64,000 nt of DNA from Desulfobacterales bacterium. GTDB lineage: Bacteria; Desulfobacterota; Desulfobacteria; Desulfobacterales; UBA5852. The stretch spans positions 1,888,001 through 1,952,000 of the forward strand of contig CAXXVS010000002.1 of NCBI GenBank assembly GCA_963674755.2. Reading direction: 5' to 3'. Shown one piece after another: positions 38,173 to 64,000 of the stretch (positions within the stretch are counted from its first letter, which is position 1; each line of letters starts with the position of its first letter). The position numbers were made by a program, and so were the translations under genes. Below the pieces are notes generated by a model, which saw only the letters and a program-made list of their open reading frames with translations, ran no database searches and had not been told where the DNA came from.

Positions 38173-38174
38173 GA

Positions 38175-39275: not shown

Positions 39276-40376
39276 TCACCTTTTCTCGTGGGATTGTTCG
39301 GCCGCATTGCGAACCAGCGCCGCATAGCGGTAAAGTCCGTGCAGGAACTTGCCGTAAGGCATGGTGATGAACAACCCCAGGACAAACCCGAGATGAATGG
39401 CGAGCAGGCCTCCCATGAGCGGCGTCGCCCGGAACACGAGAAGCAGCAAGCCGGTCAGACCCGTCATGAAAAGCACGATGATAAAGGCCATATCCATACC
39501 AAGGGTTTCCGGCGCAGCCGGTTTGCGGTCCATCCGACGCTTGAGATAGAACAGTCCCCCCGTACCGATCACCAGGGCCAGCCCTCCCAGGGTTCCCAGT
39601 AGAACGGGCCAGCTCCAGAAGGGATAGGGCGCCGGTCGGTGCAGCAGGTGGTCATAGAAGAACGCTACCGTAGTAGAAGTCAAGCACAGTAGAAAGCCAT
39701 AGAAGACCGCGTGGTGCAGGCGGCGACGGATCATGCTGAAGCGATCGTCGGGGTAGTTGCAGCCGTGCCCCCCGCCGTCCAGATATTTGAGCCGCAGGAC
39801 ATCCCAGACCGCCTGCCGGTGCGCCGGCCAGCGCTTGAGCTCTTCCGGGGTGCCGCCGAAAACCTGCCATAAACGGACGAACCCCTTGCCAAGGCCCACC
39901 AGCACCCACACGGCCAGCGCCATGAACGGCAATACCATGGCGGCATAGGGGATCACCTGGTAGAAGGCGCCTTCTCCCGTATGGGTGGCGAAGAGCACGC
40001 CACGCCCCTGGAACAAAAGGGTCAGCACAAGCACCAGCGCGACACCGAGGGCGGCGATCAGCCCGACGATCAGGCCGTTGTTCTGGAAAAAGCCCGCCAT
40101 GGCCCTGGGCCAGCTCGCCTCCCGGTAGGTGTCCTGGCGCAGCTCCGCCAGGGTCCGGGGCACGTTGAGCATGAACTCGTGGGGCGGTGCATACTGGCAG
40201 GCATAATAGCAGCCGCGGCAGTTGTGGCAGAGATTGGCCAGATATTTCAGGTCCTGTTCCGAGAACACCCGCCGCAGTTCCATGGCCGGAAAGACGGCGC
40301 AAAACCCTTCGCAGTAGCGGCAGGCATTGCAGATCGTCATCACCCGGTCAGCTTCCTTTAAGATTGTCGATGACAT
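39276..40376 (-). CDS. tcuB: Tricarballylate utilization Fe-S membrane protein TcuB
   Basis: ICNACRYCEGFCAVF, LCHNCRGCYYACQYAPPHEF, PYGKFLH. Confidence 0.95.
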   Translation of the reverse strand: MSSTILKEADRVMTICNACRYCEGFCAVFPAMELRRVFSEQDLKYLANLCHNCRGCYYACQYAPPHEFMLNVPRTLAELRQDTYREASWPRAMAGFFQNNGLIVGLIAALGVALVLVLTLLFQGRGVLFATHTGEGAFYQVIPYAAMVLPFMALAVWVLVGLGKGFVRLWQVFGGTPEELKRWPAHRQAVWDVLRLKYLDGGGHGCNYPDDRFSMIRRRLHHAVFYGFLLCLTSTTVAFFYDHLLHRPAPYPFWSWPVLLGTLGGLALVIGTGGLFYLKRRMDRKPAAPETLGMDMAFIIVLFMTGLTGLLLLVFRATPLMGGLLAIHLGFVLGLFITMPYGKFLHGLYRYAALVRNAAEQSHEKR

Positions 40377-41790: not shown

Positions 41791-41896
41791 GTTGGGTTCC
41801 TCCTCCTGGTCTATTGGTTGCGTCTATCGATTGCGTCTATGGGCTGCGGCCCCTCCGGCACAGGGCCGGTGGCCTGCCAAAAAAGCAAAAGGCCTC

Positions 41897-41911
41897 TCAA
41901 AATGCGTACCA
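41897..41911 (-). promoter_or_regulatory. Candidate sigma54 promoter (-12 variant) for tcuAB
   Basis: TGGTACGCATTTTGA. Confidence 0.45.
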
Positions 41912-42069
41912 ATTTTGCGATCGGCGCCATAATTCGGCCCCTGTAAGGACAAGGGCGACCATGGCAAGATTTCCCATCGCTATTATAAAACATAACGTTT
42001 CATTTATTGGACACTTTGTGTCAACATCGTGTTCCTCGTGCGGCCACCTCCTTGCCGACCTAACACATT

Positions 42070-43134
42070 TTATGGCCTCGAAGGAAACGGTACCCCAACC
42101 CGCTCGCCCTCGCGCACCAGGGAAGCCACCACGTCCGGTGTCAGCGGAATCCCGGTCGTCCGGCGCACCTGCTCGTTCAGCGCTTCCGGCTCACCCGGCA
42201 TGCGGATCGCGTCGACCCCCGCCGCCCGGGGTTGGGCCTTCACCCGCGCCACAAGGGTTTCCATGCGGGCCTCGAACTGCGCCCGAGGCATGAAGAGGTC
42301 GGCTTTGAAGGCCAGGAAGAAATGCCCCGTTCCCTGGGGACCGTCCAGTCCGGTAAAGGGGTTGCGGGTCTCGCCGCCAAAGGCGGCCCCCGTGAAAACG
42401 CCGCTCAGCACATCCATCAGCATGGAAAGACCGGCCCCCTTGACGCCGCCCATGGGCAGCACGACGCCCTCGAAGGCTTCCGCCCCGTCGGTGGTGGGCC
42501 GGCCGTGCCGGTCCAGGGCGAGCCCCTCCGGGATGGCATCGCCCCGCTGGGCGGCAAACTTCAATTTGCCCCGGGCCACCACCGAGCAGGCCATGTCCAA
42601 CACGAAGGGCGACGCCTGCCCCGCCGGGGCGCCCGCCGCAAACGGGCTGGTGCCCAGGAAGGGCGCCCGGCCGCCCCACACGGGCAGGGCCGGTGAGGCA
42701 TTCGTGAAGGCCAGTCCCACGCAGCCGCCTTCGACCGCCTGGAGGATGTAAAGGGCGGCCATGCCGTAGTGGCCGCTGCGGTTTACCCCGGCCAGGCCCA
42801 GGCCGCACTCTCCGGCAATGGCAATGGCTTCAGCCATGGCCCGGCGTCCCACCACCAGACCGAGACCGTCGTCACCGTCCACCAGGGCCGCGGCCGGGGC
42901 CACGCGGTTAATTTTGATGTCCGGAGTGGGATTGGCGACTCCCCGCCGCAGGCGTTCGCAATACATGGGCACCCGGGCCACACCATGGGAATCGACTCCC
43001 CGCAGATTGGCTTTCACCAGGGCCCGGGCCGCGGTCCGGGCGTCGTGGGCCGACAGGCTGTAGCCGGCAAAGACCTCGGCCAGCCAGGTTTCCAGTTCTT
43101 GCCAGGCCACATTGATCGACTGATCCGGTTGCAC
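42070..43134 (-). CDS. Ldh_2-family (ComC/AllD-like) 2-hydroxyacid dehydrogenase
   Basis: RGVDSHGV, SGHYG, LDMACS, KGAGL; AGGAGG RBS before GTG. Confidence 0.88.
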   Translation of the reverse strand: MQPDQSINVAWQELETWLAEVFAGYSLSAHDARTAARALVKANLRGVDSHGVARVPMYCERLRRGVANPTPDIKINRVAPAAALVDGDDGLGLVVGRRAMAEAIAIAGECGLGLAGVNRSGHYGMAALYILQAVEGGCVGLAFTNASPALPVWGGRAPFLGTSPFAAGAPAGQASPFVLDMACSVVARGKLKFAAQRGDAIPEGLALDRHGRPTTDGAEAFEGVVLPMGGVKGAGLSMLMDVLSGVFTGAAFGGETRNPFTGLDGPQGTGHFFLAFKADLFMPRAQFEARMETLVARVKAQPRAAGVDAIRMPGEPEALNEQVRRTTGIPLTPDVVASLVREGERVGVPFPSRP

Positions 43135-43244
43135 GAACACCTCCTTCCGGGCGTCTTTGCAGGTCAAACGCCCCTGTTGGGCTGCTTGCGAACGCCTGTA
43201 AAGTCTTTTCGCATCCCCGCCGAATCGACGGGAGCGCCCATCCG

Positions 43245-43736
43245 CTATCCGTCACGCGGCAAAAAAAGGTCGGCGGTCCGGGTGTCGGGATCCTCCCGGG
43301 CCGCGACGCCTTCGGGGGCGACTTCCAGAATAGCCACCACGACCTTGATGCCGCAGATCGTTTCATGGGTCAGGTGCCCTCCCATGGTGGCCACCGTATT
43401 CCCCTCCACGAGAGAGGCGGCAAAGTGGGCGTGAATTTCGGCCCCGCCGGCGGCTTGTGGTGCAATCCATCCGGTCAGGGATACCAGTTCCATGGGACGC
43501 GTGATTTCCAGATAAAGGCGGTCCTCGGGTCTGACCGGAAATTGCCGGGGGAAATGTCTCAGGTTCCGGAAGACAGCCTTTTCCAAGGCGCCCAGTCCGG
43601 AAACGATGACCCCGGCCCGGATCTCCTCGCTTTGAACCGCTTCTTCGATGGCGCCCAGCAGGGGCGCCCCCCGTCGGGCGCGAAACTGCACCACCCGCCC
43701 GACGGCCTGACTGCCGATCTGGTCAATCCTTGTCAT
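43245..43736 (-). CDS. PPC-domain (DUF296) protein
   Basis: ELVSLTG, HAH, GGHL. Confidence 0.85.
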   Translation of the reverse strand: MTRIDQIGSQAVGRVVQFRARRGAPLLGAIEEAVQSEEIRAGVIVSGLGALEKAVFRNLRHFPRQFPVRPEDRLYLEITRPMELVSLTGWIAPQAAGGAEIHAHFAASLVEGNTVATMGGHLTHETICGIKVVVAILEVAPEGVAAREDPDTRTADLFLPRDG

Positions 43737-44461
43737 GACGCGCCTCCTCCTCTTCAACTGGTGATGGTATGCCAATGATCAACCGCACCCGCTGGCATGG
43801 CGCAACCGGCAGGCATGGGCAACCTTGAAACGCAAATGTGGAACCGATTGCCTGCGGTTTGCAATAGACGTGCACAGAATGCGCTTGATCCGCTGTGGTA
43901 AATGGAGAAACCGTGCCGTGGGCAACCTGGCGGTTAGCCCGGCTATTTTATGAAAGTTGGGACGCATGCCATTGGCGGTTTGGATTAAAGCGGCAGAAAA
44001 AGAAGGGCGGCCTTTGGGGGAGATAGAGGAGAAATCGAAGCGCGCCTACGACCATGAAACCGTGTGCCTGAAAACGGTCGGGCCCCACTTGCGCGGCCGG
44101 CGCCAGGCATAAAAGGGACGGATCTCAAAGCAGAAAGACCACTTGATTGAAATAGTGCCCCTCCGGAGGTGGTCGATTTTGGTTTCTGGTCCCGCCGCAC
44201 AGCGCGGGATTTCACGCCTGATCTTAAAAACTGCGGTGTTCAACAAAGCCGCAGACGACTGGCGTCCCGCTGGGCGGGACTTCCCATCTGATTGATTTTT
44301 CAACGGTGGGTGCCCACAGGCGTAGCCGGGCTACGCCGAGGACCGACAGGAGGCGAGAACGCCAGCCTGTCCGCCAAAGGTGGATTTGGTCCACCGGCGG
44401 CGGGCCAGGGGCCAGAAGATGCCATTTATGGATGGGCCCTAAATAGCAAATTGGCAAGATG

Positions 44462-46006
44462 TTAAGCGTTGAAACGGTCCCCCGCCCTTCTGCTCTTGCG
44501 GAAAGCCAGGATCATCTGAGCCACGGGCATCACGAGAAATCCCAGGGTCATCAGGTTAATGACCATGGTGACGGGACGCTGCCACAAAAAGGCAATGGAA
44601 CCGTTGTAAATTTCAAGCGAGCGTCTGAGATTGTCCTCCATCAACCCTCCCAGAATGAATCCCAGCAGTATCGGCGCCATGGGGTAGTTCAAGAGCCTCG
44701 CCACCAGGGCGACGGCAGCAATCGCCACCATCATCTCGATATCGAAAGTATTGAAGGTCACCAGGTAGACGCCGATGATCGAGAAGAAAAAGATGCAGGG
44801 GATGAGGATGTTTTTGGGCACGGCCAGGAGACGCGCAAAATAGGGAATCAACGGCAGGTTGAGAATGAGCAGGAACACATTGCCCAAATACATGGACATG
44901 ATGACGGCCCAGAAGACTTCGGGCCGTTCCACGAACATCCGCGGGCCGGGCTCGATGCCGTAGGCGATCAAGGCCCCCAGCATCACGGCCGTGGTTCCGG
45001 AGCCCGGTATCCCCAGAGTCAAAAGCGGAACGAAAGACCCGGAACTCGCCGCATTGTTGCCCGTTTCCGGTGCCGACAAGCCGATGATGCTCCCCTTGCC
45101 GAACTCTTCCCGGTCTTCTTTGGAGGCCAGGTTGCGCTCCATTCCGTAGGAAAGGAACGAGCCCAGCGTGGCCCCGGCGCCGGGCAGGGCCCCGATGAAA
45201 AACCCCAACAGGGAACAGCGGCCCATGGTGGGCAGGATTTTTTTAAACTCTTTTTTGGTAACCTTGAGATCGCTGATGCTGCCGACGTTTTCCGATTTGA
45301 AGACCCCCGTGGTGTCCAGGCGCTTGAGAATCATCAGCAGGCCTTCGGTGAGGGCGAACGTGGCCATGGCCAGCATCAGAAAACTGATGCCGTCGAGCAG
45401 GTCCAGGCTCCCAAAGGTATAGCGCTGGACGCCCGAGGTCTGATCCGTTCCCACGGTGGACAGCATCAACCCGACCACGACCATCAAAACCGCCTTTAAA
45501 AAGCCCCCCTTGCCTGCGAAGGCGGACACCGCCGTGAGCCCCATGACCATCAGGGCGAAATAATCGGATGACTGGAAGCTTTTGGCAACCGAGGCCATCA
45601 TGGGCGCCGCGATCATCAGCAGGATCACGGCCACGGTACCCCCTGTGAAGGAGGAATACGCGGCGATGGCCAGGGCTTTACCCGGCTTGCCCTTTTGGGC
45701 CATGGGGTAGCCGTCGAAGGCGGTTGCCACGGTGGCGGCTTCGCCCGGCGCATTGATCAGGATCGAACATGTGGATCCGCCGAAGATGGCGCCATAATAT
45801 ACGCCGGCCAGCAGTACCATACCGGTGGCGGGATTCAACCCGTAGGTCACGGGAATCATCAACGCCACGGCGGTAATCGGCCCAAGCCCCGGCAGCATGC
45901 CGATAAAGCTGCCGATAAAGCATCCAAAGAGCACCACCACGATATTGACGGGGATCAACGTGGTCTGGATGCCGATCCACATCCCGTCTAGCATGCCTTC
46001 CCACAT
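44462..46006 (-). CDS. tctA: Tripartite tricarboxylate transporter TctA (second system)
   Basis: GMLPGLGP, DGYPMAQKG, APETGNNA, LTLGIPGS. Confidence 0.93.
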   Translation of the reverse strand: MWEGMLDGMWIGIQTTLIPVNIVVVLFGCFIGSFIGMLPGLGPITAVALMIPVTYGLNPATGMVLLAGVYYGAIFGGSTCSILINAPGEAATVATAFDGYPMAQKGKPGKALAIAAYSSFTGGTVAVILLMIAAPMMASVAKSFQSSDYFALMVMGLTAVSAFAGKGGFLKAVLMVVVGLMLSTVGTDQTSGVQRYTFGSLDLLDGISFLMLAMATFALTEGLLMILKRLDTTGVFKSENVGSISDLKVTKKEFKKILPTMGRCSLLGFFIGALPGAGATLGSFLSYGMERNLASKEDREEFGKGSIIGLSAPETGNNAASSGSFVPLLTLGIPGSGTTAVMLGALIAYGIEPGPRMFVERPEVFWAVIMSMYLGNVFLLILNLPLIPYFARLLAVPKNILIPCIFFFSIIGVYLVTFNTFDIEMMVAIAAVALVARLLNYPMAPILLGFILGGLMEDNLRRSLEIYNGSIAFLWQRPVTMVINLMTLGFLVMPVAQMILAFRKSRRAGDRFNA

Positions 46007-46488
46007 TATTTGATCACTCCTATCATGTAGAAAATCTCACCTGGCGCGATGTACATCCCCAGGATGTAGGACATCAGGAAGAACAGCCCGATGACCAGCG
46101 GTACGGAGGCCAATACCATCACTTTGAGGCTTCGCTCACCGAGAATATAAAAACCGGTATTCAAGAAAAGAATCGAGGAGATGATGAACCCCAGCCATTT
46201 CATGATCAGCCCGTAGATGACGGTGATGCCGAGAAACCAGATGGCCCTTTGCCAGTCCAGCCCGGCGAAAACCTCTTTCAGGCTCCGACGGCCTTCCGCT
46301 TCGATGGTCGGCAGCAGAATAATCAAAAGCGATATCACCACGCCGGCAATGCCCAGGGCAAAGGGCATGGTGCGGGCATTGATGACCTCATCCTGCGATA
46401 GAAAGGTCAGGGGAATCGTGAAGGCGCCCAGTCCGTAGGCCACGGAAAAGAGCAGACACAGGAAAGCCCCGATTTTTTCACTGTTCAT
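46006..46488 (-). CDS. tctB: TctB (second system)
   Basis: Small multi-TM protein between tctC and tctA. Confidence 0.82.
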   Translation of the reverse strand: MNSEKIGAFLCLLFSVAYGLGAFTIPLTFLSQDEVINARTMPFALGIAGVVISLLIILLPTIEAEGRRSLKEVFAGLDWQRAIWFLGITVIYGLIMKWLGFIISSILFLNTGFYILGERSLKVMVLASVPLVIGLFFLMSYILGMYIAPGEIFYMIGVIK

Positions 46489-46589
46489 AGGTGTTGCCCC
46501 CGTTGGGCGGGACCGTCGACGACATATTCATGTGCGGCGTGCGACGATCCCGCGTGGCACTAGCAAAAACGATCCATTCCGGACGGGCA

Positions 46590-47588
46590 TTATTTGATGA
46601 ATCCCATGGTCCGCATCAACCCGCCGATCATCTTTTCCTGCTTTTCCAGAAAGGCGTAGAATTCTTTGCCCGGTTTGTAGAGGTTCTGCCAGCCGTGGCT
46701 TTTCCGGATGGCTTCCCATTCCGGGGTTCCATACATCGCTTTCAACATCTGCTCAAAGGCCAGCGCCCGTTCAGCAGGCAGCCCTGGAGCGCCGAAAAAT
46801 CCGCGCCAATTGGCGAAGGTGGCATCGTAGCCCAATTCCGTGAGGGTCGGGACATCCGGTGTGGCGGCCAATCGCTCCTCGGAGGTGACGGCCAGAATGC
46901 GCACCTCGTCCTGCCTGGCCAAACCCACCGCTTCTGAATAGCCCGTGGACAACACCTGGGTATCTCCGGATAAAAGGCCGGCCATGGCTTTTCCACCGGC
47001 ATCATAGGGAACGTATTTGACTTTCAGCGGATCGCCGCCGGCCGCCTGAAAGGCCATCGCGGCCACGATATGGTCCATCCCCCCCTTGACCGATCCACCG
47101 GCAATGCGAACCGATGTGGGATCCTTTTTGAAATCATCCACAACCTGCGTCCAGGTTTGATATTTGGAGTTGCTGGGCACCACAAAGGCCGCATAGTCGG
47201 CGATCACCGATGCAATGGGTGTCAAGTCCCGGAACGACTGGGGGAACACGCCCGTAAGCGAGCGGATGATGATGGGCGTGGAATTGACCATGAGGGTGTC
47301 CTGCTGGCGTTTGGCCGTTGAGATCATGTAGTTGAGGGCCTTGCCGCCGCCACCGCCGGACATGTTCTCAAACGAGGCGTGTTTGATGATACCGGCATCC
47401 ATCAGGGCCTTGCCCACGCCCCGGGCGGTACCGTCCCATCCGCCGCCGGCGCCGCCGGGAATCAGAAAATGCACTTTCTCAGGCCAATCTCCGGCGCCGA
47501 CCGGAACGGCAAACACCATTGCGGCCATCAGGATCACAGCCACCATCCATTTTCCGTGCAAAAGCCATTTTCGGGGAATCGCTTGCAT
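46590..47588 (-). CDS. tctC: TctC substrate-binding protein (second system)
   Basis: PGGAGGGWDGTAR, NMSGGGG, NWRGFFGAPG. Confidence 0.9.
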   Translation of the reverse strand: MQAIPRKWLLHGKWMVAVILMAAMVFAVPVGAGDWPEKVHFLIPGGAGGGWDGTARGVGKALMDAGIIKHASFENMSGGGGGKALNYMISTAKRQQDTLMVNSTPIIIRSLTGVFPQSFRDLTPIASVIADYAAFVVPSNSKYQTWTQVVDDFKKDPTSVRIAGGSVKGGMDHIVAAMAFQAAGGDPLKVKYVPYDAGGKAMAGLLSGDTQVLSTGYSEAVGLARQDEVRILAVTSEERLAATPDVPTLTELGYDATFANWRGFFGAPGLPAERALAFEQMLKAMYGTPEWEAIRKSHGWQNLYKPGKEFYAFLEKQEKMIGGLMRTMGFIK

Positions 47589-47719
47589 TTCATTCCTCCT
47601 TTCGTCACCGCGTTGTTGGGCCGCTGCCACGCAAAGGCAACGGTGCTATCAAAGGCGGGGGGCCCGGCCTAAAAGAGTTGATGGCCGGCCGTTCCGTGTT
47701 GTTAGGGAGGGATCATGGC

Positions 47720-54304: not shown

Positions 54305-55471
54305 TCAAATGAAACGTTTCATGAGCTCGTCGATGGCCGCATCCACATTGCCGGCATGGATCCCGTACTGCCGGCAGGCCTGCGCCACCCGGTCCCGTCG
54401 ATCAGGTACCGCCAAGTCCGCCAGGCGGGTGAAAAGCCCCAGGCGGCGGCCCACCTGGTAGAGGACCTGCTCTTCCGGGGGCAAGGCCAGGAAATCCCGG
54501 ATGACCCGGGTCATGGCGGCTTTGTCCGCGGGCAGGCGGCCTTCCACCTCCTGGAAGAGATTGAGAATGTGGTCGCTCTTGATAATGCTGGAAATCCCCT
54601 CCAGATGTTCCAGGAAGAGCAGGGTTTCTTCCGCCATTTCACGGTCCGTCAGTTTGACGAAACGACCGGCCGCGGAATCCTCGTAGAGCGCGGTGTGGTT
54701 GGGAATGGCCAGGGTGCGCAGCCGGATGAAATCCGGATCGATCTGATTGAGGGCCTCGGCGGTCTCCAGGGCGTGCTCCCGGGAGAGATCCCGCCCCCCC
54801 AGGCCCGGCATGACGTATTCGGAGAGTTCCATCCCGGCCTGTTTGATCTTGCGGCCGGCCTTGATGTGAACGGCCTTGCTGACCCCCTTTTGCATGCGGG
54901 CCAGCACCCGGTCCGATCCGGATTCCAGCCCGATATGGATGCGGTTCAGACCGGCATCGGCATAAGCGCGCAAGTCCTCTCCTGCGATGCGGGCCACGGT
55001 GTGGGAACGGGCATAGGAGGTGATGCGTTCCACCGAGGGGAAACAGGCGCGCAAACGGGCCAGGACCTGCTTCAGGTCCTCCGGTTTGATGATCAGGCTG
55101 TTGGCGTCCTGGAGAAAAATGGAACGCATGCCGCCGGAGAACCAGTGCAGGGCCGCCTGGAAAGCGCCGTCGTCGCGCGGGACCACGCTGCTGCCCACCC
55201 GGTGCACATCATCGGGGGTGATGCGCCCTGCCCCGCCGGCTGCCTCCTGCAGGGCCGCGACGTAGCGCTGCACCCGATCGATGTCTTCGATCACATGGGC
55301 AACTGGCCGCAGAGAAAAGCGCCGGCCCTTGTAGACCGGGCAGAAGCGGCAGCGGTTCCAGGGGCAGTTGCGCGTTACACGGATCAGCAGACTGTCAGCT
55401 TCGCTGGGGGGCCGGATGGGACCCTGTTCGAAGCCCTGGTAGCGCTGCTTTTCTTCTCTGCTGGGGATCAT
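54305..55471 (-). CDS. Radical SAM protein
   Basis: GPIRPPSEA, CPWNRCRFC, GLESG. Confidence 0.88.
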   Translation of the reverse strand: MIPSREEKQRYQGFEQGPIRPPSEADSLLIRVTRNCPWNRCRFCPVYKGRRFSLRPVAHVIEDIDRVQRYVAALQEAAGGAGRITPDDVHRVGSSVVPRDDGAFQAALHWFSGGMRSIFLQDANSLIIKPEDLKQVLARLRACFPSVERITSYARSHTVARIAGEDLRAYADAGLNRIHIGLESGSDRVLARMQKGVSKAVHIKAGRKIKQAGMELSEYVMPGLGGRDLSREHALETAEALNQIDPDFIRLRTLAIPNHTALYEDSAAGRFVKLTDREMAEETLLFLEHLEGISSIIKSDHILNLFQEVEGRLPADKAAMTRVIRDFLALPPEEQVLYQVGRRLGLFTRLADLAVPDRRDRVAQACRQYGIHAGNVDAAIDELMKRFI

Positions 55472-55583: not shown

Positions 55584-56912
55584 TCAGGGGCGCGCCGCTT
55601 GGCCAGCCGGGGGAGGCGGGGCGGCCGGGAGGGCCTCCTCGCCGGGCGCCGTCTTCTGCCAGCGGAAGCGGATCTTGGCCCCGCCATAGGGGCACTGGTC
55701 CACGCAGCGCAGGCACATGAGGCACTCGGCCATGGGAATCTTCGGCGATATGCCCTCCCGTAAGGCCTCCCGGTCGATAATGCCGGTGGGGCAGATATCG
55801 GCGCATTGCATACAGGAAAACTTCTTGCACTGCCGGGCGCCGATCACGATCTTGATCAGGCCCATGCGCGCGGCCAGGGCCAGCACCGCGCCCACCGGGC
55901 AGAAATAGCGGCACCAGCTCCGGCGCTGGCCCACTTCAAGGGCGGCCACCGCCGGGAAAATCGCCATCTGGACGCCCGCGAGCAGACCGTTGGGGCCGTA
56001 AGAGCGGCACAGGCTGCCGATGGGACAGACCGTACAAAAGGGTTGAAACCCCAGACCGGCACTGGCGCCCACCGCGCCGGCCAGCACCCCGTATTTGATC
56101 ATGCGGTTTTTAAGAAACCGGGGCAATCCGAACGTGGGGGTCACCTTGCCCACCAGGTCGAGCAAAAACCCGAAGGGGCAGATCCAGCCGCAAAACACGC
56201 GCCCCAGCAGCAGGGTCAGCACCATGAGGATCGCCGCCGACCCCAGACCGGTCAGCCACAGGGTCCGGGAGGAGGCCAGGTTCTGCAGAAAACCGGTGGG
56301 GCAGGCCAGGTTGACCGCCCCGGCTCGGAAATAGCAGAAGGTTCCCACGAACACCATCACCAGCAAAAAGAAGGCCAGGGCCTGAACCGGCCAGCGCAGC
56401 AGCCTGATCCAGCCGAAAGCCTTGCCCCGGGTAAGCTTGAGGGCCTTTTCCGGGCATTGCTTTACACATGCCGGGTCGCCGTTGCACAGATCGCACTTTT
56501 CGACGCGGCCGGTCTCCGGATCTTTCAAGGGCGCCGCTTCCGGACAGGCCAGAGCGCACAGGCCGCAGTCCGTGCAAAGACGCCGCTCGATGCGCACGAT
56601 TCCGTCTTCCCCCTTGGCAATGGCACGGGTGGGACAGACCGCCATGCACAGGGGGTCCCGGCAGTGCTGGCAGTAAATGGCAAAGTTTCGGCCGTCCTTC
56701 TCCGCCGTGAGCACACGGATGGCTGCGACCGCCGGGCCGTCCTCCAGGGAATGCCGGTTGGCGCAGGCGGTCACGCATTCGCCGCAGCCCGTACAGCGCG
56801 CCGGATCGAACAGCATCACCGGCGGCCGGCGGGGCAGCTTGCGCTTCCCGGTCCGGGGCCGCAGCTCTTCCATGGTGATCATCGTTTCGACTCCGTTGGC
56901 TCTATCCAGCAT
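55584..56912 (-). CDS. Fusion: DmsB/CooF-like 4x[4Fe-4S] domain + NapH/MauN-like membrane polyferredoxin
   Basis: CTGCGEC, CQHCRDPLCMAVCP, KCDLC; then TM helices with GRVFCGWICPFG and WCRYFCPVG. Confidence 0.82.
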   Translation of the reverse strand: MLDRANGVETMITMEELRPRTGKRKLPRRPPVMLFDPARCTGCGECVTACANRHSLEDGPAVAAIRVLTAEKDGRNFAIYCQHCRDPLCMAVCPTRAIAKGEDGIVRIERRLCTDCGLCALACPEAAPLKDPETGRVEKCDLCNGDPACVKQCPEKALKLTRGKAFGWIRLLRWPVQALAFFLLVMVFVGTFCYFRAGAVNLACPTGFLQNLASSRTLWLTGLGSAAILMVLTLLLGRVFCGWICPFGFLLDLVGKVTPTFGLPRFLKNRMIKYGVLAGAVGASAGLGFQPFCTVCPIGSLCRSYGPNGLLAGVQMAIFPAVAALEVGQRRSWCRYFCPVGAVLALAARMGLIKIVIGARQCKKFSCMQCADICPTGIIDREALREGISPKIPMAECLMCLRCVDQCPYGGAKIRFRWQKTAPGEEALPAAPPPPAGQAARP

Positions 56913-57414
56913 CGTGTTTCCGCTGCTCTTGTTGTTGGTCTGGCCGCAGGGAGGGAGCCCCAGCGTTGTGCCGGGCATACCGGTGCTGCCGGCATACGGC
57001 ACAGGTGGCCAGGTAATCCCCGGCGGGATGGCCCAGACGCGCCTGGACAAAGGCCTCCACCGGCCGGGGCACAAAGGGCGTGCCACAGATGGCGCAGGGG
57101 CGGATCTGGTCATCCCGGCCCGTTTCGACGGCCAGCCGGCGCAATCCCTGGATCAGGTCCCGGCAACTGACCCCTTCCGGGCAGACATCGGTGCCGGCAT
57201 TGCATCCGGTGCAGCACCAGATGGCCGGATCCTGGAGAAGGTCGTCGTCCGTCAACGCCCTGCGGATGATGCCCCGGGGCGACATCTCCCACCGGAAGTC
57301 AGGGTACATTTCCACCATGGGGCAGGCCGCCACGCACTTGCCGCACTCCACGCAGCCCCGGGCGCCCGTGGCCGTCAGGATGGCGTCCATTTTTGCTTTC
57401 AGGGATTCGGACAT
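56902..57414 (-). CDS. HdrC-like 4Fe-4S protein with C-terminal CxxC pair
   Basis: CVECGKCVAACP, IWCCTGCNAGTDVCP. Confidence 0.78.
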   Translation of the reverse strand: MSESLKAKMDAILTATGARGCVECGKCVAACPMVEMYPDFRWEMSPRGIIRRALTDDDLLQDPAIWCCTGCNAGTDVCPEGVSCRDLIQGLRRLAVETGRDDQIRPCAICGTPFVPRPVEAFVQARLGHPAGDYLATCAVCRQHRYARHNAGAPSLRPDQQQEQRKHDAG

Positions 57415-59447
57415 GTCGCCTCCCTGACGATTTGGGCCGCACAGGCCTTGAATTCAGGCACCTCGGAAACCGGGTCCAGAGCATTGTTGGTCAAGGCGTC
57501 GGCCGGCGCTTCGTTAAAATGAAAGGCGGCAAACACCGTCCCCGCAGCCACCTTCGGCACCACCCGGGCCGTGGTCATTATGGCGCCGCGTCGCGTCTCG
57601 ACCCGGATGCGGTCCCCGTCACAGATCCCCCGGCCTTGTGCATCCTGCGGGTTGACCTCCACAAAGGGTCGGTCCACCTCGCGCTGAAGGGACGGGGACC
57701 GTCGCGTCATGGTGCCGGTGTGGTAATGGCAAAACATCCGGCCGGTGATCAGCACCAGCGGATAGCGCTCGTCCGGCATCTCCCGGGGGGGCTGGTAGTC
57801 CGGTACCACGAACAGGCCCCGCCCCCGGGCGAATTGTTCCTGGTGCAGCACGGCCGTCCCTGGATGATTGGTATCCGGACAAGGCCACTGCAAGCCCCCT
57901 GCGTTCAGCCGCCCGTAGCGGATGCCGCCATAGGAGGGCGTCAGCGATGCGATCTCGTCCATGACCGCGGCGCTGTCGGCATAGCTGAAATCCAGGCCCA
58001 GGGCCTGTCCCACCCGGCACAGGATCGTTAAATCGTCCCGGGCGTCTCCCGGCGGATCCACGGCTTTGCGGAGGCGCTGCACCCGGCGCTCGGTATTGGT
58101 AAAGGTGCCCTCCTTTTCGGCAAAGCAGGCCGCCGGCAGCACCAGGTCGGCCAGGCGCGTGGTGTCGGTAGGAAAGATGTCCTGGACCACCAGGAAATCG
58201 AGCCGCTTTAGAAATTCAATGGTGTGCCGCTGGTCGGGGTCGCTCATCACCGGGTTCTCCCCCATGATATAGGCCGCCCGGATCGGGCTTTCGGCAGCAG
58301 CCATGGCCGCGGTCACGGTCAGGCCGGGTTCCGCCGGCAGCGAACCGCCCCATTGCGCTTCGAAGCGGGCCCGCACGCGGTCATCGTCGACCTTCTGGTA
58401 GCCGGGCAGCACATTCGGCAGCCCCCCCATGTCGCAGGCCCCCTGGACATTGCATTGGCCGCGCAGGGGGCAGATGCCGGCCTGGGGCCTGCCCACCTGG
58501 CCGCACATCAGCGCCAGATTGCACACCGCAAATACATTGGCCGTGCCGCACACATGCTGGGTAATGCCCATGCAAAAAACGATCATGGCCGCGGGCGCCC
58601 GGGCGTAATCCTCGGCCACCTGCCGGATCAGCTCCGGCGCCACGCCGCATACCGTTGCGGCCCGCTCCGGCGCCCAATCGTCCAGGTGGGCAGCAAGGGC
58701 CGCCAACCCCTCGGTGCGCTGATCGATAAAGGTCTGGTCCGCCAGTCCGTTGGCCAGGAGGTGATGCATCATGCCGTTAAAAAGCGGGATGTCGGTGCCG
58801 GGCCGCAGGGTCAGATGGAGATCGGCGTTCCTGGCCATTTCCGTGGTCCGGGGATCGATCACCACCAGCCGGGCCCCTTTTTCCCGGGCCCGGTAGATTT
58901 CCCCCATGGCCACCGGAAAGGTCTCGGCCGCGTTGGATCCGACGGCCAGGATGAAATCGGTATTGGCAAAATCCGCCAGGGAATTGGTCATGGCGCCGCT
59001 GCCCAGGGCCCGGCCCATGGCCGCCACGGTGGGGCCGTGGCAAAGACGGGCGCAGTGGTCCACATTGTTGGAACCGAAGCCCCGACGGATCAGCTTCTGG
59101 AACAGGTAGTTCTCCTCGTTGGTGCAGCGGGCCGAGCAGAGGCCGCCCACCGCGCCGGCACCATGGCGCTCCGCCACCTCACCCAGCCGCCCTACCAGGA
59201 CGTCGATGGCCTCGTCCCAGGAAATGTCAACAAAACGCCCGCCCTTTTTCAGCAGGGGTGTCGTCAGCCGGTCCGGATGGTGGATAAATTCGCCGGCCGA
59301 CCAGCCCTTGATGCACAAGGTGCCCTTGGAGACAGGATGCCCCCGGTCCGGCTGGCAGCCCACCACCCGGCCGTCGCGTACCGTCAGGATGAGGCCGCAG
59401 CCGGTACCGCAATAGGGGCAGATGGTTTTTACGAAATCAGGTCCCAT
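57399..59447 (-). CDS. fdhF: Cytoplasmic formate dehydrogenase alpha subunit (FdhF-like, Cys-type)
   Basis: CPYCGTGCG, DHCARLCH (TGC codon), LRGQCNVQG, GTFTNTERRVQ; no Tat signal. Confidence 0.92.
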   Translation of the reverse strand: MGPDFVKTICPYCGTGCGLILTVRDGRVVGCQPDRGHPVSKGTLCIKGWSAGEFIHHPDRLTTPLLKKGGRFVDISWDEAIDVLVGRLGEVAERHGAGAVGGLCSARCTNEENYLFQKLIRRGFGSNNVDHCARLCHGPTVAAMGRALGSGAMTNSLADFANTDFILAVGSNAAETFPVAMGEIYRAREKGARLVVIDPRTTEMARNADLHLTLRPGTDIPLFNGMMHHLLANGLADQTFIDQRTEGLAALAAHLDDWAPERAATVCGVAPELIRQVAEDYARAPAAMIVFCMGITQHVCGTANVFAVCNLALMCGQVGRPQAGICPLRGQCNVQGACDMGGLPNVLPGYQKVDDDRVRARFEAQWGGSLPAEPGLTVTAAMAAAESPIRAAYIMGENPVMSDPDQRHTIEFLKRLDFLVVQDIFPTDTTRLADLVLPAACFAEKEGTFTNTERRVQRLRKAVDPPGDARDDLTILCRVGQALGLDFSYADSAAVMDEIASLTPSYGGIRYGRLNAGGLQWPCPDTNHPGTAVLHQEQFARGRGLFVVPDYQPPREMPDERYPLVLITGRMFCHYHTGTMTRRSPSLQREVDRPFVEVNPQDAQGRGICDGDRIRVETRRGAIMTTARVVPKVAAGTVFAAFHFNEAPADALTNNALDPVSEVPEFKACAAQIVREATCPNP

Positions 59448-60289
59448 GACGTTTCCTCGATGGAATCGGTCCAATCGGGAAGGGCAATCTCCTGCGCCGG
59501 CGCATCGATATAGTTGGCCAGCAGCGGCGACAACCGCTCCGCTTCCGTCCCAGCGTCGTACTGATAGCTGCGCTGCAGGGCGTTTCGCAGGGGAAGCTGC
59601 AGCAGCATCAGCGGGATGCCCACCGGGCAGGCCTCCTGACAGGCGCCGCAGGCCACGCAGGCATCGGCCACATGCATGGCCCGCACCAAATGGAAGGTGA
59701 GCATGTCCGGCGCGATCTCGCCCGGCGCCGTCCACACACGATCCTCCAGTTTGCAGCTCTCGCAATGGCACACCGGACAGGCATTGCGGCAGCCGTAGCA
59801 CTTGATGCAGCGGGAAAACACCTCCTGCCATTTGGCAAGCCGGACGGCACGCTCCCCGCCCAGGTATTGGCGGACCAGGTCGCTGCGGGACAGATCGGCG
59901 CCGGCCGCCTTTTCACCTGCGTCCACCCGGGACGGCCAAGGACGCCGGCACAGGCAGCGCTGGGCCTGGGCGGCTGAGCAGGCCACCCCGATCATGTGCA
60001 GACGTCCGGGATCGAGGCGGTGGCGTTTGCCCAGTTCCACCAGGGCCCGTTCGTCACAGCCCCGGCACACCACTGCCAGGCGGTAACTCTCCGGGGTCTG
60101 GACCAGCACGGACAGCGCGATTTTGGCCAACACCCATTTGGGCTCCAGCACCAGAGCGGCCAGCGCGTCGGCCTTGTCGAAGACCCGGGGCGCCACGCCG
60201 TCCTCATCCCCGGCAAGCCCCAGGACCCCGTCGGCGGTTTGATGTTCGAGTATGTCCCGGGCCATCCCGCGGACCGTATCAAGCGTCAT
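59429..60289 (-). CDS. FdhB/FlxB-like 4Fe-4S subunit
   Basis: RGCDERAL, CIKCYGCRNACPVCHC, FHLVRAMH, CVACGACQEACP. Confidence 0.8.
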   Translation of the reverse strand: MTLDTVRGMARDILEHQTADGVLGLAGDEDGVAPRVFDKADALAALVLEPKWVLAKIALSVLVQTPESYRLAVVCRGCDERALVELGKRHRLDPGRLHMIGVACSAAQAQRCLCRRPWPSRVDAGEKAAGADLSRSDLVRQYLGGERAVRLAKWQEVFSRCIKCYGCRNACPVCHCESCKLEDRVWTAPGEIAPDMLTFHLVRAMHVADACVACGACQEACPVGIPLMLLQLPLRNALQRSYQYDAGTEAERLSPLLANYIDAPAQEIALPDWTDSIEETSWDLIS

Positions 60290-60773
60290 CGCCCCAACCT
60301 CCAAGGACAGGGTCCGTCTTCGTCACCCGGCACGTCAGGGCGGACAGGGCCGCTATCCGCTGGGAAAAGCGCCGCATCAGGGCCGCGAACTGGTGGCCTT
60401 CATGGGCGGTCCCGAAACTGGTCAACAGCCGGTCCGCGCCGATCCCCACGGTTTCGAGCAGGGTGGTCAGCAGGGCCATGCGTTTGGCCGCGGCATGGTT
60501 GGCCCGGTTGTAGCGGCAGCCGTCCAGGTGACAGCCCAGGACCGCCACCCCCTCCGCCCCGGCGGAAAAAGCCTTGAGGATGACATCCGGATCGACCCCG
60601 GCGGCGCATTCCACCGGCACGCAGCGGAAACCCGCCGGCATGGGCAGCCGTTGCCGCCCGGCCTCGTCCGCGCCGATCCCGGAACACCACCGGCAGGCAA
60701 AGACCAGGATTTTCGGATCGGCCCCATCCTGGGGTCGGTTTGCGATCGTTTTTTCGGTGACGCATGCGGTCAT
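60279..60773 (-). CDS. mvhD: MvhD-like [2Fe-2S] subunit
   Basis: FACRWCS, VECAAGVD, LGCHLDGCRY. Confidence 0.85.
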   Translation of the reverse strand: MTACVTEKTIANRPQDGADPKILVFACRWCSGIGADEAGRQRLPMPAGFRCVPVECAAGVDPDVILKAFSAGAEGVAVLGCHLDGCRYNRANHAAAKRMALLTTLLETVGIGADRLLTSFGTAHEGHQFAALMRRFSQRIAALSALTCRVTKTDPVLGGWGDDA

Positions 60774-62515
60774 TGGTCGGCAACCCTCCCCTGAATAGTG
60801 CGGCAAGGGCGGCCATCCTGCCGGCCGGCAAAGGCATCCGCCACGATACGGACCATCGCACGGAATCCGTTTTCCGGCAGGACGGCGCTCTGATTGGGAC
60901 AGACGGCCGCACAGCTGCCGCACCCCATGCAGCGCACCGGGTCCACCATCGCCCGCCAGCCGGTTGGGGTCTGTTCCAGACGGCAGGCCGTAAACGGACA
61001 GACTGCCACACAATTGCCACAGCCCGTGCAGGTCTCCGGCAACACCTGGGCACAGGCCGCACGGGCCTTCTGAAAACTGATCAACTCGGAGGCCCGGCAG
61101 ACCGGGCGGGACACCAGATGCAGGGCCTTGGCGGCCGCGGCCCGGCCCTGGGTCATGGCCCCTTCGACCATCACCGGCCAGCGCGCGGCGCCGCATACAA
61201 ACAGGCCCGGGGCCGAGGTTTCCACCGTGTGCAGAAAGGGCTGCACCCGGTAGAAGCCGTGGCGCTCCGCCGGGAGCGGGATGGCCCGGTTCTCCCGGGG
61301 CTCCAGCGGAGTGCTGAGCACCACGCGCTGCGCTGCGATCGAGCGCTCCCGGCCGGACAGGGCATCCGCGACCGTTACGCCGGTGACCTTGTCTCGGCCT
61401 TCGATACGGGGCGGCTCCTGCGGATCGAAGCGGATGAACAGTACCCCGGCGGCCGTGGCCCGGCGGTACAGGGCCTCCAGCTGGCGGCCGGGGCTCATGA
61501 TGTCCCGGTGCAGAATGGTCACCGCCATTCCGGGATCGCCCTCCTTCAAGCGGATGGCGTTTTTGAGGGCCGCCGGACAGCAGACCGCCGAACAATAGGA
61601 GCGCTCCTGGTTGCGGACATTCACACACTGGATGAAAACCGTGTCCCCGCCGATGGGTCCACCGTCCCGGAAGGCCTTCTCCATTTCCATGCCGCTGATC
61701 ACCCCGGGCAACTCGCCGTAGCGGTAGATGCCCCGGGAGAGCCGCGGCTTGGCCCCGGTGGCCACGATTACCGCCCCGGCCGTGAGATGCGTCTCCCCGT
61801 TCTTGCCGGACAGACGGGCCTCAAAATTTCCGGCGCTGCCGCTGAGCGCCGCCACCCGGGTGCCGAGATGCACCTGGATATGGGGATCGTTTTGGATCGC
61901 TTCCACCAGCGGCTCCCGCATGGCGTCCGCGCCCTGGTTCGACGGCGTCACCCGTCCGAGGTAGTTCAGCATGCCGCCCAGCCGGCCGGTCGCTTCCACC
62001 AGGGTCACAGCGACCCCGGCGCGCCCCAGGGCCGCTGCCGCGGCCAGGCCGGCCGGCCCGCCGCCCATGACCAGAACGCGTTGGCAGACCGCGATGTCAA
62101 TATCCGGCGGAGCCTCGCGGTAGCGCAGGGCCGTGATGCCCATACGGATCAGGTCCGCGGCCTTGGCCGTGGCCGCCTCTGATTGAGCGGCGTGAATCCA
62201 GGCGCATCCCTCGCGGATATCGGTGACCATCACCCGTGCGGGATCGACGCCGTAAGCTTCGAGGCGGTCGATCAGGTCCTCGCCCCGGGCCAGTGGGGAG
62301 CAGCCCGCGATCAGGAGCCGGGTTCCGTTGTCGGCTTGCATGCGTCGGGCCAGGTTGGCCAGGATATCGCCCAAGCACAGGGCGTCACAACTCTCGACGG
62401 AAGCCACCCGGTCATCACCGGCCAACTGCCGTTGCAACCGGTTAAAACTCACGATATCGCCGATCTCCCCGTGGCAGCGGCATAAGATGCAATTAACGAC
62501 AGGGAAAGCGGTCAT
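60770..62515 (-). CDS. hdrA: HdrA-like flavoprotein (QmoB-like, MvhD separate)
   Basis: CRC N-terminus, IREGCAWIH, GGGPAG, CSAVCC, C-terminal 2[4Fe-4S]. Confidence 0.85.
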   Translation of the reverse strand: MTAFPVVNCILCRCHGEIGDIVSFNRLQRQLAGDDRVASVESCDALCLGDILANLARRMQADNGTRLLIAGCSPLARGEDLIDRLEAYGVDPARVMVTDIREGCAWIHAAQSEAATAKAADLIRMGITALRYREAPPDIDIAVCQRVLVMGGGPAGLAAAAALGRAGVAVTLVEATGRLGGMLNYLGRVTPSNQGADAMREPLVEAIQNDPHIQVHLGTRVAALSGSAGNFEARLSGKNGETHLTAGAVIVATGAKPRLSRGIYRYGELPGVISGMEMEKAFRDGGPIGGDTVFIQCVNVRNQERSYCSAVCCPAALKNAIRLKEGDPGMAVTILHRDIMSPGRQLEALYRRATAAGVLFIRFDPQEPPRIEGRDKVTGVTVADALSGRERSIAAQRVVLSTPLEPRENRAIPLPAERHGFYRVQPFLHTVETSAPGLFVCGAARWPVMVEGAMTQGRAAAAKALHLVSRPVCRASELISFQKARAACAQVLPETCTGCGNCVAVCPFTACRLEQTPTGWRAMVDPVRCMGCGSCAAVCPNQSAVLPENGFRAMVRIVADAFAGRQDGRPCRTIQGRVADQ

Positions 62516-63735
62516 CGAACCACCTCCGTCAGGGTCTCCATGGCCGCCGCCGAACCCTGGACCGCCGCCGTCTCCACATCGGCCGGTGCCTTGCAGAAGC
62601 CGCAGCTTCGAGCCCCGGGAACGTCTTCTGCCACAAAACCGCCCGCGGCAAGGCAGGAGGCCTCCACGGCCTCGGGTACGGCCGGTCGCAGGCCGCCGTT
62701 CAGCACCACCAGATCGAAGCGTTCCATGGCCGGCGTCCGGGTGAGGGTGTTTTCATACTTGACGGCGATCCCGTCGCCGCCGGGCAGGGGGTAGACCAGT
62801 CCCGGCCGGGCACGGACCATTTCGATGCCTTCGGCAAGGGCCGCCTGGCGGAAATAGGTTTCGTAGCCGTGCCCCTCGGTCCGCAAATCCGTATAGAAGA
62901 TTACGCACCGGCCATCGCCCTGGCGGCGCCGCACCCAGCGGGCCTGTTTGAGGGCATGCATGCAACAGACCGCGCTGCAGTGGGACTGCAGCCGCCGGTC
63001 GCGCGCTCCGGCGCACTGGATGAACGCCACCCGGGTGGCCGGCCGGCCGTCGTGACAGCGGATCGCCCCCTGGTTGGGACCGGCCTCGGCGATCCAGGTT
63101 TCAAAGGCCAGGGCATCCATGATGTCCGGGTGGCTGCCGGCACCGAATTCCGGGGCCGGCGCCAAATCGGCCGCCTCAAACCCCGTGGCCCAGATCACGC
63201 CGCCAATCCGGAGCCGCTGCGCCTCGGCCGGACGATGCAGATCCACGGCGCCCGTGGGACAGGCCTCGCTGCAACGGCCGCAGCCGGTGCAGCGTGCCGC
63301 ATCGATCCGGAAGACCGGCGGATAGACGTGCGGCGCCGTCAATGCCACGGCGTTTTCTTCGCATGCCGCCGCACACCGTCCGCAGCAGATGCAGCGCTCA
63401 GGATCGATGGCGTTGGGCGACGTGTGCAGCACCGCGGTCTGAAAGCCCTCGCCGGGCATCAGTTCGGAAACAGTGGTCCAGGTGTGAACGCTGATCCGGG
63501 GATGGCGCCGACAGAGGCGGGCCTCGGACCAGACCGGGCAGAAACCGCAATGATCGGTGGGGTAGAGTTTGTCCAGGTGCGCCGTCCGGCCGCCCAGTTC
63601 GCCGGCGCGCTCCACCAGATGGACGCTTCGGCCGGCCCGGGCCAGGTCGAGGGCCGCGCTGATGCCGGCCACCCCGCCGCCCACCACCAGGACGGGATCG
63701 GCAATGGCATCGGATTGGGCGGGCTGTTCCATCAT
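62512..63735 (-). CDS. hdrA: HdrA-like flavoprotein (QmoA-like size) with inserted ferredoxin
   Basis: GGGVAG, LDKLYPTDHCGFC, FIQCAGARD, CSAVCCMHALKQA. Confidence 0.85.
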   Translation of the reverse strand: MMEQPAQSDAIADPVLVVGGGVAGISAALDLARAGRSVHLVERAGELGGRTAHLDKLYPTDHCGFCPVWSEARLCRRHPRISVHTWTTVSELMPGEGFQTAVLHTSPNAIDPERCICCGRCAAACEENAVALTAPHVYPPVFRIDAARCTGCGRCSEACPTGAVDLHRPAEAQRLRIGGVIWATGFEAADLAPAPEFGAGSHPDIMDALAFETWIAEAGPNQGAIRCHDGRPATRVAFIQCAGARDRRLQSHCSAVCCMHALKQARWVRRRQGDGRCVIFYTDLRTEGHGYETYFRQAALAEGIEMVRARPGLVYPLPGGDGIAVKYENTLTRTPAMERFDLVVLNGGLRPAVPEAVEASCLAAGGFVAEDVPGARSCGFCKAPADVETAAVQGSAAAMETLTEVVR

Positions 63736-64000
63736 TCCGTCCCCTCGGGGTCTTTCAACCCGTGGTTGCGGGCGATTTGTTCCAGACGCTTACCGAACCA
63801 GGTCACGAAATCGTCCTGTTCGAACTCATAGGGCCCGAGCCGGTCTTCGGGACGCATGGCAATTCTCTTTTCCGGCGCCGGGTAGCGTTTGGGATCCTCA
63901 TAGGCCACCCGGATCGCGAGGGGCTGGGTGGGACAACGGCGCACGCAGGCCCCGCAGCCGTTGCAGCGTTCGGCGATCACCACCGGATAGCGGCGCTTTT
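63732..64000 (-). CDS. 4Fe-4S protein C-terminus (possibly NapG/MauM-like), 5' part outside window
   Basis: PVVIAERCNGCGACVRRCP; stop overlaps next start. Confidence 0.6.
   Translation of the reverse strand, partial: KRRYPVVIAERCNGCGACVRRCPTQPLAIRVAYEDPKRYPAPEKRIAMRPEDRLGPYEFEQDDFVTWFGKRLEQIARNHGLKDPEGTE

Follow-up and report, generated by a model that had tools for sequence, protein, structure and literature searches.

A conserved ten-gene set from a Desulfobacterales bacterium joins an HdrA-MvhD-formate dehydrogenase module without HdrB to a NapH-type membrane protein and a predicted periplasmic tungsten oxidoreductase

Introduction

To which partner does an HdrA flavoprotein pass its high-potential electrons if its gene neighbourhood offers no HdrB? 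To our knowledge, HdrA modules lacking HdrB are widespread among sulfate reducers and syntrophs, and few of them have an assigned high-potential partner. The question is raised by a locus at the end of a stretch of 64,000 nucleotides from a Desulfobacterales bacterium (assembly GCA_963674755.2, contig CAXXVS010000002.1, positions 1,888,001 to 1,952,000 of the forward strand), which we refer to as the window; its contig is abbreviated as C2. The original prediction for this locus had proposed a Qmo-like complex of two HdrA copies, MvhD and formate dehydrogenase, wired to an HdrC/NapH-like membrane module and distributing electrons between ferredoxin and menaquinone. We find that the eight genes in the window are the downstream part of a conserved set of ten. 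We tentatively propose that these ten genes build one membrane-spanning redox complex with a two-sided quinone junction, in which formate electrons would be bifurcated to ferredoxin and menaquinone and a periplasmic tungsten oxidoreductase (WOR), WorSL, would feed the same NapH-type protein via NapG.

Results

Gene content and absence of HdrB

All eight predicted genes were present in the given order on the minus strand, but the first of them does not code for a ferredoxin: it is the end of a gene for a 233-residue NapG/MauM-type protein with a twin-arginine N-terminus, of which only the last 88 residues lie inside the window. The unit also starts outside the window, as reading contig C2 past the edge added worL and worS upstream. 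The full order of the set, termed cassette in the following, is worS-worL-napG-hdrA1-hdrA2-mvhD-fdhB-fdhA-hdrC-like-worS/napH fusion, and its genes are listed here in that order.

C2:1954324-1955040, beyond the window, upstream of worL: WorS, 238 aa subunit with four [4Fe-4S] clusters and a twin-arginine leader
C2:1952525-1954321, beyond the window, upstream of napG: WorL, 598 aa W/Mo-bis-pterin subunit of the aldehyde oxidoreductase (AOR) family
63732 to 64000, minus strand: 3' end of the gene for a NapG/MauM-type protein with four [4Fe-4S] clusters (whole gene C2:1951732-1952433, 233 aa)
62512 to 63735, minus strand: HdrA1, 407 aa, predicted bifurcating half
60770 to 62515, minus strand: HdrA2, 581 aa, second flavin (FAD) domain and C-terminal domain with two [4Fe-4S] clusters
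60279 to 60773, minus strand: MvhD [2Fe-2S] adaptor, 164 aa (PF02662, E 1.8e-36)
59429 to 60289, minus strand: FdhB-like Fe-S adaptor, 286 aa (7bkb_E, E 8.4e-33)
57399 to 59447, minus strand: FdhA, cytoplasmic Cys-type formate dehydrogenase, 682 aa (TIGR01591, 810 bits, cut-off 666)
56902 to 57414, minus strand: HdrC-like protein, 170 aa, with an HdrC two-cluster domain and a HycF-type four-Cys tail
55584 to 56882, minus strand: WorS/HycB-type domain with four [4Fe-4S] clusters fused to a NapH-type membrane domain, 432 aa

The eight genes had been described as overlapping, which holds for six of the seven junctions (-4, -4, -4, -11, -19 and -16 bases); the hdrC-like gene and the fusion gene are separated by 19 bases if the ATG at 56882 is taken as the start, a length in line with the orthologs of about 430 aa.

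HdrABC heterodisulfide reductases require the CCG-domain subunit HdrB, whereas the cassette has none. The absence noted earlier within the window extends upstream, where we found napG but no hdrB. No CCG domain was detected near the locus, the nearest of 29 matches in the genome lying about 0.5 Mb away on contig C2, and the related loci leave no room for hdrB between the mapped cassette genes. Three other HdrA loci of the same genome do have an adjacent CCG domain.

Conservation of the gene order

A search with the fusion protein as query retrieved 79 loci in GTDB genomes, 23 of which match from the fused N-terminal domain onwards, and WorL as query retrieved 68 metagenome loci. The tally given here covers 78 loci (L003-L026 and L086-L139) after excluding 55 distant NapH-only and 14 distant AOR loci, and neighbour pairs were counted only where at least 1.5 kb followed. 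The tallied loci are related to one another, in some cases almost identical, and cassette genes were used to retrieve them; their counts show rigidity rather than independent origins. In 38 of the 78 loci the stretch from worL to the fusion was complete with its nine genes, most of the others stopping at a contig or locus edge. In the upstream part, adjacency was kept for worS-worL (62/62), worL-napG (53/55), napG-hdrA1 (53/55) and hdrA1-hdrA2 (51/51), in the middle part for hdrA2-mvhD (45/45), mvhD-fdhB (45/45) and fdhB-fdhA (44/47), and in the downstream part for fdhA-hdrC (43/44), hdrC-napH (44/44) and the pair of napH and a short AOR-like gene (20/21). The order from HdrA to NapH which the original prediction had put forward for a synteny search is thus nearly invariant, and the NapH-like gene belongs to it, following the hdrC-like gene wherever there was room. 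With neighbour pairs kept in 43 to 62 related loci each, the gene arrangement is far beyond chance.

Among the exceptions, locus L090 ends after napG, and 3 of 47 loci, all from Desulfovibrionaceae, have a cassette without fdhA. A locus from Negativicutes (L026:847-10903) contains worS-worL-napG-napH without Hdr or Fdh genes and carries a gene for an NAD(P)H-type (GltD/NuoF-like) flavoprotein instead, together with YeeE-like genes and, as labelled by eye, one cysteine-desulfurase-like and two tatC-like genes. WorS-WorL-NapG is therefore the more constant partner of NapH, as it stays when FdhA is lost or the Hdr block is replaced. The distribution is patchy, with the cassette found in 2 of 400 genomes of the phylum and in none of 60 relatives, 12 of which belong to the same genus; it is accessory, which limits its ecological weight.

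The split HdrA pair

HdrA1 consists of a thioredoxin-reductase-like FAD domain with a CxxC motif (C63/C66), an inserted ferredoxin domain with two [4Fe-4S] clusters, the four-Cys cluster, E212 and K263; it aligns with residues 143-560 of methanogen HdrA (5odc_A) and has neither the N-terminal nor the C-terminal domain of the latter. HdrA2 contains an N-terminal Cys domain, the second FAD domain (E279, K318) and two C-terminal [4Fe-4S] clusters, without the CxxC motif or the inserted ferredoxin. The same genome encodes two fused HdrA dimers, 1007 and 1011 aa long, which HdrA1 and HdrA2 together cover from one end to the other; we predict from this that the two proteins represent complementary halves of a split BamE-type dimer.

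Residue conservation was counted in 35 aligned of 54 available HdrA1 and in 32 of 44 HdrA2 sequences. As the relevant flavin-side Lys and Glu we take K409 and E356 of 5ODC, which were mapped by counting in the alignment with 5odc_A. The original prediction would have failed if the HdrA copies had lost their FAD-binding or bifurcation residues, but both have kept them: the GxGxxG motif and the four-Cys cluster of the thioredoxin-reductase domain are invariant in HdrA1 (35/35) and HdrA2 (32/32), the HdrA1 residues C63/C66, the cluster Cys, E212 and K263 all occur in 35 of 35 sequences, and HdrA2 retains K318 in 32 and E279 in 30 of 32. Because the bifurcation residues are retained, a high-potential partner would be expected at the HdrC port. 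BamE is described, in the available part of a recent account, as a fused HdrA dimer with the bifurcating FAD in the N-terminal thioredoxin-reductase domain next to a conserved Lys, with participation of a Cys59-Cys62 pair and with exit of the high-potential electron to the HdrBC-like BamD (10.64898/2026.04.10.717634). HdrA1 agrees with what is stated there of the bifurcating half of BamE, and we predict the same role for it.

The MvhD, FdhB-like and FdhA proteins

Five Cys of MvhD are invariant in 18 of 18 sequences. Its gene is a separate open reading frame (ORF) here and in most loci, and reads as fused to hdrA2 in L102 and L103 and to fdhB in L022 and L023. The FdhB-like protein is shorter than the FdhB of methanogens (286 vs. 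380-414 aa). FdhA scores over its family cut-off and carries the Cys/selenocysteine (Sec)-His ligand pair, the ligand codon being Cys in 42 of 46 loci and TGA for Sec in the other 4. A selB gene is located in the window at 14830-16737; Sec insertion is thus likely available in this genome, though this FdhA uses Cys.

The HdrC-like protein and the WorS-NapH fusion

In the HdrC-like protein, one of the HdrC ligand Cys is replaced by Gly74 in 32 of 36 homologs, and the four Cys of its tail are invariant in 36 of 36. This tail is similar, in a weak alignment (E 0.004), to that of E. coli HycF, which is reported to bind HycB in formate hydrogenlyase. The N-terminal domain of the fusion is closest to small subunits of WORs and HycB-type proteins (8c0z_C, E 1.1e-25). 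Its C-terminal part is 30% identical to E. coli NapH (E 2e-22), contains two CX3CP motifs and two C-terminal [4Fe-4S] clusters and has a NapG partner, but scores below the NapH family cut-off, as NapG does for its own.

The multimer prediction proposed earlier was run for the HdrC-like protein with the fusion and scored 0.75, against 0.00 for the best of three controls. In calibration, 116 of 157 solved pairs and 2 of 215 mismatched ones attained the mark, figures that hold only roughly with the alignments used here. The runs agreed in at least 94% of contacts, with a predicted local distance difference test (pLDDT) of at least 81 for the partners. The model places the HdrC-like tail on the N-terminal domain of the fusion, and further confident contacts are formed by residues 30-36 and 69-74 of HdrC and by the ferredoxin domain of NapH. 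This model supports binding of the HdrC-like protein to the WorS-NapH fusion.

The fold predicted for the whole fusion had a mean pLDDT of 43.8 and was left unused, whereas the NapH part alone reached 90.0. A Foldseek search with this part returned no match at E 0.001, and fold comparison matched only its ferredoxin part, with a best Z of 7.1 over 60 residues at 2.2 Å, which does not imply a new fold. From the loop charges (K+R of 4, 2, 6, 1 and 5), both Fe-S domains are probably inside and loops 1 and 3 outside. The predicted outer loops carry five extra Cys that are shared without exception by 106 of 106 close homologs and that 20 of 78 distant ones possess in full; E. coli NapH does not have them.

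The predicted periplasmic half

The napG product is 35% identical to E. coli NapG (E 3e-23) and is hit by the NapG model with E 1.3e-24. Inspected by eye, a twin-arginine leader is present in 59 of 59 NapG and 50 of 51 WorS orthologs, the exception being cut at a locus edge. WorL itself has no such leader and is presumably carried across the membrane by WorS. The best match of WorL in the PDB is 1aor_A (E 1.9e-112), BamB (4z3w) being the weakest of nine, and its best solved matches are aldehyde oxidoreductases. Residues T243, E313, Y427 and H448 (P. furiosus numbering) are listed for aldehyde oxidisers in the available part of a WOR classification (PMC13328260). WorL keeps three of these four together with all cluster Cys: the four cluster Cys and the E313 equivalent occur in 120 of 120 homologs, T243 in 119 and H448 in 117. 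Relative to P. furiosus AOR, about 25 residues are missing after the catalytic His.

WorL is far from E. coli YdhV (136 bits; 204 bits against a cut-off of 868). In a quick tree with long-branch warnings, in which E. coli YdhV was the sole clade-41 member compared, the cassette WorLs grouped in a single clade with a support of 100; the Negativicutes protein was their sister (94), and YdhV stood apart. By its predicted features, a Tat-type (twin-arginine) WorS and a membrane-associated partner, WorSL conforms to the definition of class V WORs, and WorL may lie outside their phylogenetic clade 41. The class V enzymes have no assigned activity in the consulted part of the classification (PMC13328260).

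Comparison with known systems

The class II benzoyl-CoA reductase BamBCDEFGHI of Geobacter metallireducens resembles the cassette, as far as its description is available, in combining an AOR-family W enzyme and its Fe-S small subunit with a permuted-domain HdrA dimer, MvhD and an HdrC-like exit (10.64898/2026.04.10.717634). In contrast, the cassette WorS carries a twin-arginine leader, HdrB domains and BamD or BamGHI genes are absent from the cassette, and FdhAB would serve as input and the NapH membrane fusion as exit. Moreover, both cassette flavin domains keep the Lys, whereas the second domain of BamE is reported to have Gln, and the WOR appears on the HdrC side of the flavin instead of the low-potential side. 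The Fdh-Hdr and Mvh-Hdr complexes of methanogens (7BKB, 5ODC) share homologs of FdhA, FdhB, MvhD, HdrA and HdrC with the cassette, which differs from them by the lack of HdrB, a predicted HdrA heterodimer, a shorter FdhB and an HdrC with a HycF-type tail that usually lacks one cluster Cys.

The QmoABC complex of sulfate reducers likewise comprises two HdrA homologs, MvhD and an HdrC-like domain and a membrane subunit without HdrB. However, the cassette anchor is of the NapH and not the QmoC type, and MvhD is separate, whereas it is fused in QmoB. Within the cassette, the qmoC model matched only at the HdrC-like gene (28.9 bits), the true match (495 bits) being located on contig C1, and HdrA1 and HdrA2 are 26-31% identical to the two HdrA-type proteins beside this canonical qmoC. 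The cassette also occurs in hosts in which QmoC was not found. The label "Qmo-like" therefore fits less well than the relation to fused HdrA dimers of about 1010 aa. A second Qmo-like locus apart from the canonical qmo genes (C1:648410-653742) encodes, besides MvhD, a pair of HdrA halves of 438 and 616 aa and a QmoC-like subunit whose score (198.6 bits) is below cut-off.

NapGH(F) of E. coli and Wolinella share with the cassette the twin-arginine NapG and a NapH that has a pair of CX3CP motifs and two clusters at its C-terminus; in the cassette, however, napG and napH are six genes apart, napA is absent, and NapH has the fused WorS/HycB domain and the five extra outer-loop Cys. Finally, class V WORs of the YdhYV type (clade 41) also consist of WorL, a Tat-signal WorS and membrane partners, but the cassette WorL of 598 aa is remote from YdhV, and the available part of the classification mentions neither Hdr nor Nap nor Fdh as a partner in class V (PMC13328260).

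Discussion

Proposed electron flow

The ten gene products very probably form one wired complex, whichever way the electrons run. In our tentative proposal, electrons from formate would pass from FdhA via FdhB, the C-terminal clusters of HdrA2 and MvhD to the FAD of HdrA1, by analogy to Fdh-Hdr and class II benzoyl-CoA reductase. The low-potential electron would leave through the inserted ferredoxin domain of HdrA1 to ferredoxin, again by analogy, and the high-potential electron through the HdrC-like protein, clamped onto the WorS-NapH fusion, to a quinone site in the membrane. NapH would thus replace HdrB as the high-potential exit. An aldehyde-like external substrate may be oxidised by WorL, from which electrons would reach the same NapH through WorS and NapG and reduce menaquinone; this is the weakest part of the proposal. 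The basis of this scheme consists of the gene content and order, the residue conservation and the lack of a nearby HdrB, together with the predicted contact between the HdrC-like protein and the fusion. The ferredoxin/quinone arm of the original prediction is retained in it; the periplasmic half of WorS, WorL and NapG had been out of its view, and menaquinone is a presumed acceptor.

A quinone pool is likely in the hosts, because MenG/UbiE and NarI-type cytochromes scored over cut-off in all five host genomes tested. Menaquinone is given at -74 mV and ferredoxin at about -450 mV in a published abstract, and NapGH is described as a quinol dehydrogenase sending electrons towards a periplasmic reductase in the available parts of two papers (PMC5928378, PMC12780646). 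This genome and those of L004, L005 and L018 contain MenG/UbiE and NarI-type proteins with neither MqnC nor MenB over cut-off, hinting at an unrecognised menaquinone route.

Several observations weigh against the proposal. A search for FdhA at E 1e-60 was negative in two of the three Desulfovibrionaceae genomes with an fdhA-less cassette, which are possibly incomplete; since fdhA is absent from the cassette in these loci, formate is not always the donor. MqnC was over cut-off in two of five related hosts and MenB in none of the five, and neither was in this genome. We rejected this as a sign of quinone independence, as this genome has QmoC without both and MenG/UbiE is present in 5/5 hosts. 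For the NapH membrane domain, sequence and fold searches found no solved relative, and no quinone site was identified. The position of Y427 in WorL is occupied by His in 120 of 120 homologs (Trp in 3/27), and a Tat-type clade-41 WOR is reported to be inactive on 46 aldehydes in the part of the classification consulted (PMC13328260). The HdrC-like/fusion model may owe its pass to likeness to the solved HycF-HycB pair. The Negativicutes combination of WorSL-NapG-NapH with an unrelated flavoprotein agrees with a through-wire no less than with a quinone hub.

Alternative electron routes

The same parts could also work as an outward respiratory chain, which we regard as possible but rather doubtful: formate electrons would bifurcate to ferredoxin and HdrC and then cross the membrane by way of the fusion and NapG, with WorSL serving in the periplasm as terminal reductase of a fairly high-potential acceptor. 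This would keep the usual polarity of HdrC as an output and of NapGH towards a periplasmic reductase, and it agrees with the replaced active-site Tyr of WorL, the gap after its catalytic His and the exchangeable cytoplasmic partner. However, WorL retains most of the aldehyde-oxidiser residues and is closest to aldehyde oxidoreductases among solved structures, and the conserved neighbours point to no acceptor. Flow in the inward direction appears unlikely. Here, WorSL would oxidise an external aldehyde, and the electrons would enter through NapG and the fusion, either as quinol or along an Fe-S chain including a cluster on the five outer-loop Cys, and, at HdrA, confurcate with those of reduced ferredoxin so that CO2 is converted to formate, which would give syntrophs an electron sink. 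Many hosts are labelled Syntrophales or Syntrophaceae, QmoC was not found in four of five hosts tested, and both the invariance of the extra NapH Cys and the tandem worSL copies in several relatives would suit such an entry. Against this, quinol and ferredoxin average about -260 to -290 mV, enough only at very low formate, and a direct low-potential wire would not need the retained bifurcation residues.

The fusion may further act as a quinone-independent Fe-S wire across the membrane, running over a cluster on the outer-loop Cys, the two CX3CP motifs and six clusters on the inner side, which we consider improbable. If true, a cytoplasmic bifurcating flavin would exchange electrons directly with a tungsten enzyme that lies in the periplasm and has a new class of substrate, and the high-potential partner of an HdrA complex would lie outside the cell. 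Least probable in our view are two co-regulated but separate enzymes, a periplasmic quinone-linked WorSL-NapGH dehydrogenase and a soluble HdrA-MvhD-Fdh complex borrowing HdrB or DsrC from elsewhere. The many CCG matches elsewhere in this genome would allow this, and hdrA/hdrL-mvhD-fdhB(A) loci, most without hdrB in the figure legend, were described in D. autotrophicum (PMC2702500, available part). Yet the Hdr-Fdh block sits between napG and napH, hdrC and napH stay adjacent even without fdhA, and the complex model puts the HdrC-like protein on the fusion. We thus retain the quinone-linked formate bifurcation complex as our tentative reading.

Accessory and neighbouring genes

The short AOR-like gene after the fusion in 20 of 21 loci represents an eleventh gene coding for about 430 aa (e.g., L006:5133-6425), which matches the N-terminal AOR domain only. 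It has no ortholog in this genome, nor does it occur in the 1 kb past the fusion in the closest relative (L088); its product is possibly a cap for the WorS domain of the fusion. Tandem worS-worL duplicates or a second worL occur upstream of napG in L016, L101, L124, L125, L126, L128, L131, L133 and L141, which suggests several WOR heads per membrane anchor. A cytochrome P460-family gene directly upstream of worS and/or a divergent small LysR/ModE-like helix-turn-helix gene was seen in L092 (8008-9069), with similar ORFs in L106, L107, L113, L118, L121 and L135. A ThiF-family gene and an unannotated membrane protein of about 220 aa recur at the cassette flanks in L109, L112, L010 and L024 and possibly serve in WOR maturation.

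Next to the cassette, the downstream radical SAM gene (54305-55471) was rejected as a member, as it was matched in none of the related loci. Upstream of worS on contig C2 follow genes for a LuxR regulator and a histidine kinase, treated as local because the pair was matched in 2 of 69 loci scanned for it (L087, L088). A 13-bp all-GC hairpin lies beyond the window edge at C2:1952478-1952508 (z -2.88; an equally good fold in 3 of 200 shuffles). A promoter scan at the locus was uninformative (1 found vs. 2.1 expected). Elsewhere in the window, 33131-47630 is likely a tricarballylate/citrate-use region, with TcuA (40351-41790) and TcuB (39279-40409) both over cut-off, a PrpF-like isomerase, an isopropylmalate-dehydrogenase-like gene, a sigma-54 activator and, by eye, apparent TctABC transporter genes (44462-47630).

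Prior work and significance

Desulfobacterium autotrophicum HRM2 has orthologs of WorL (Aor4, ACN14540.1) and of the fusion (ACN14548.1), eight accession numbers apart, a spacing that fits the cassette. The available part of its genome paper draws hdrA-mvhD-fdhB-fdhA loci and lists an Aor neighbour, with no NapGH link or mechanism in that text (PMC2702500), and other Hdr or NapGH systems are treated in PMC5947623, PMC5109826, PMC5928378 and PMC12780646, as far as these were accessible. A literature search by titles and the beginnings of abstracts, with most subscription papers outside its coverage, found no account of this arrangement. The cassette thus appears to combine known modules in an arrangement we did not find characterised, a variant of the HdrA-MvhD-Fdh complexes with a predicted NapH-type exit and a predicted periplasmic WOR. 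As HRM2 is a cultured strain, its WorL and fusion orthologs make proteomics and purification feasible. For an HdrA without HdrB, the operon itself names a candidate high-potential partner in the NapH-type membrane protein. One testable object thereby bears on the role of Tat-exported WORs and on electron transfer by NapH-family proteins, as well as on the question of whether quinone or the periplasm can be the end point of Hdr-type bifurcation.

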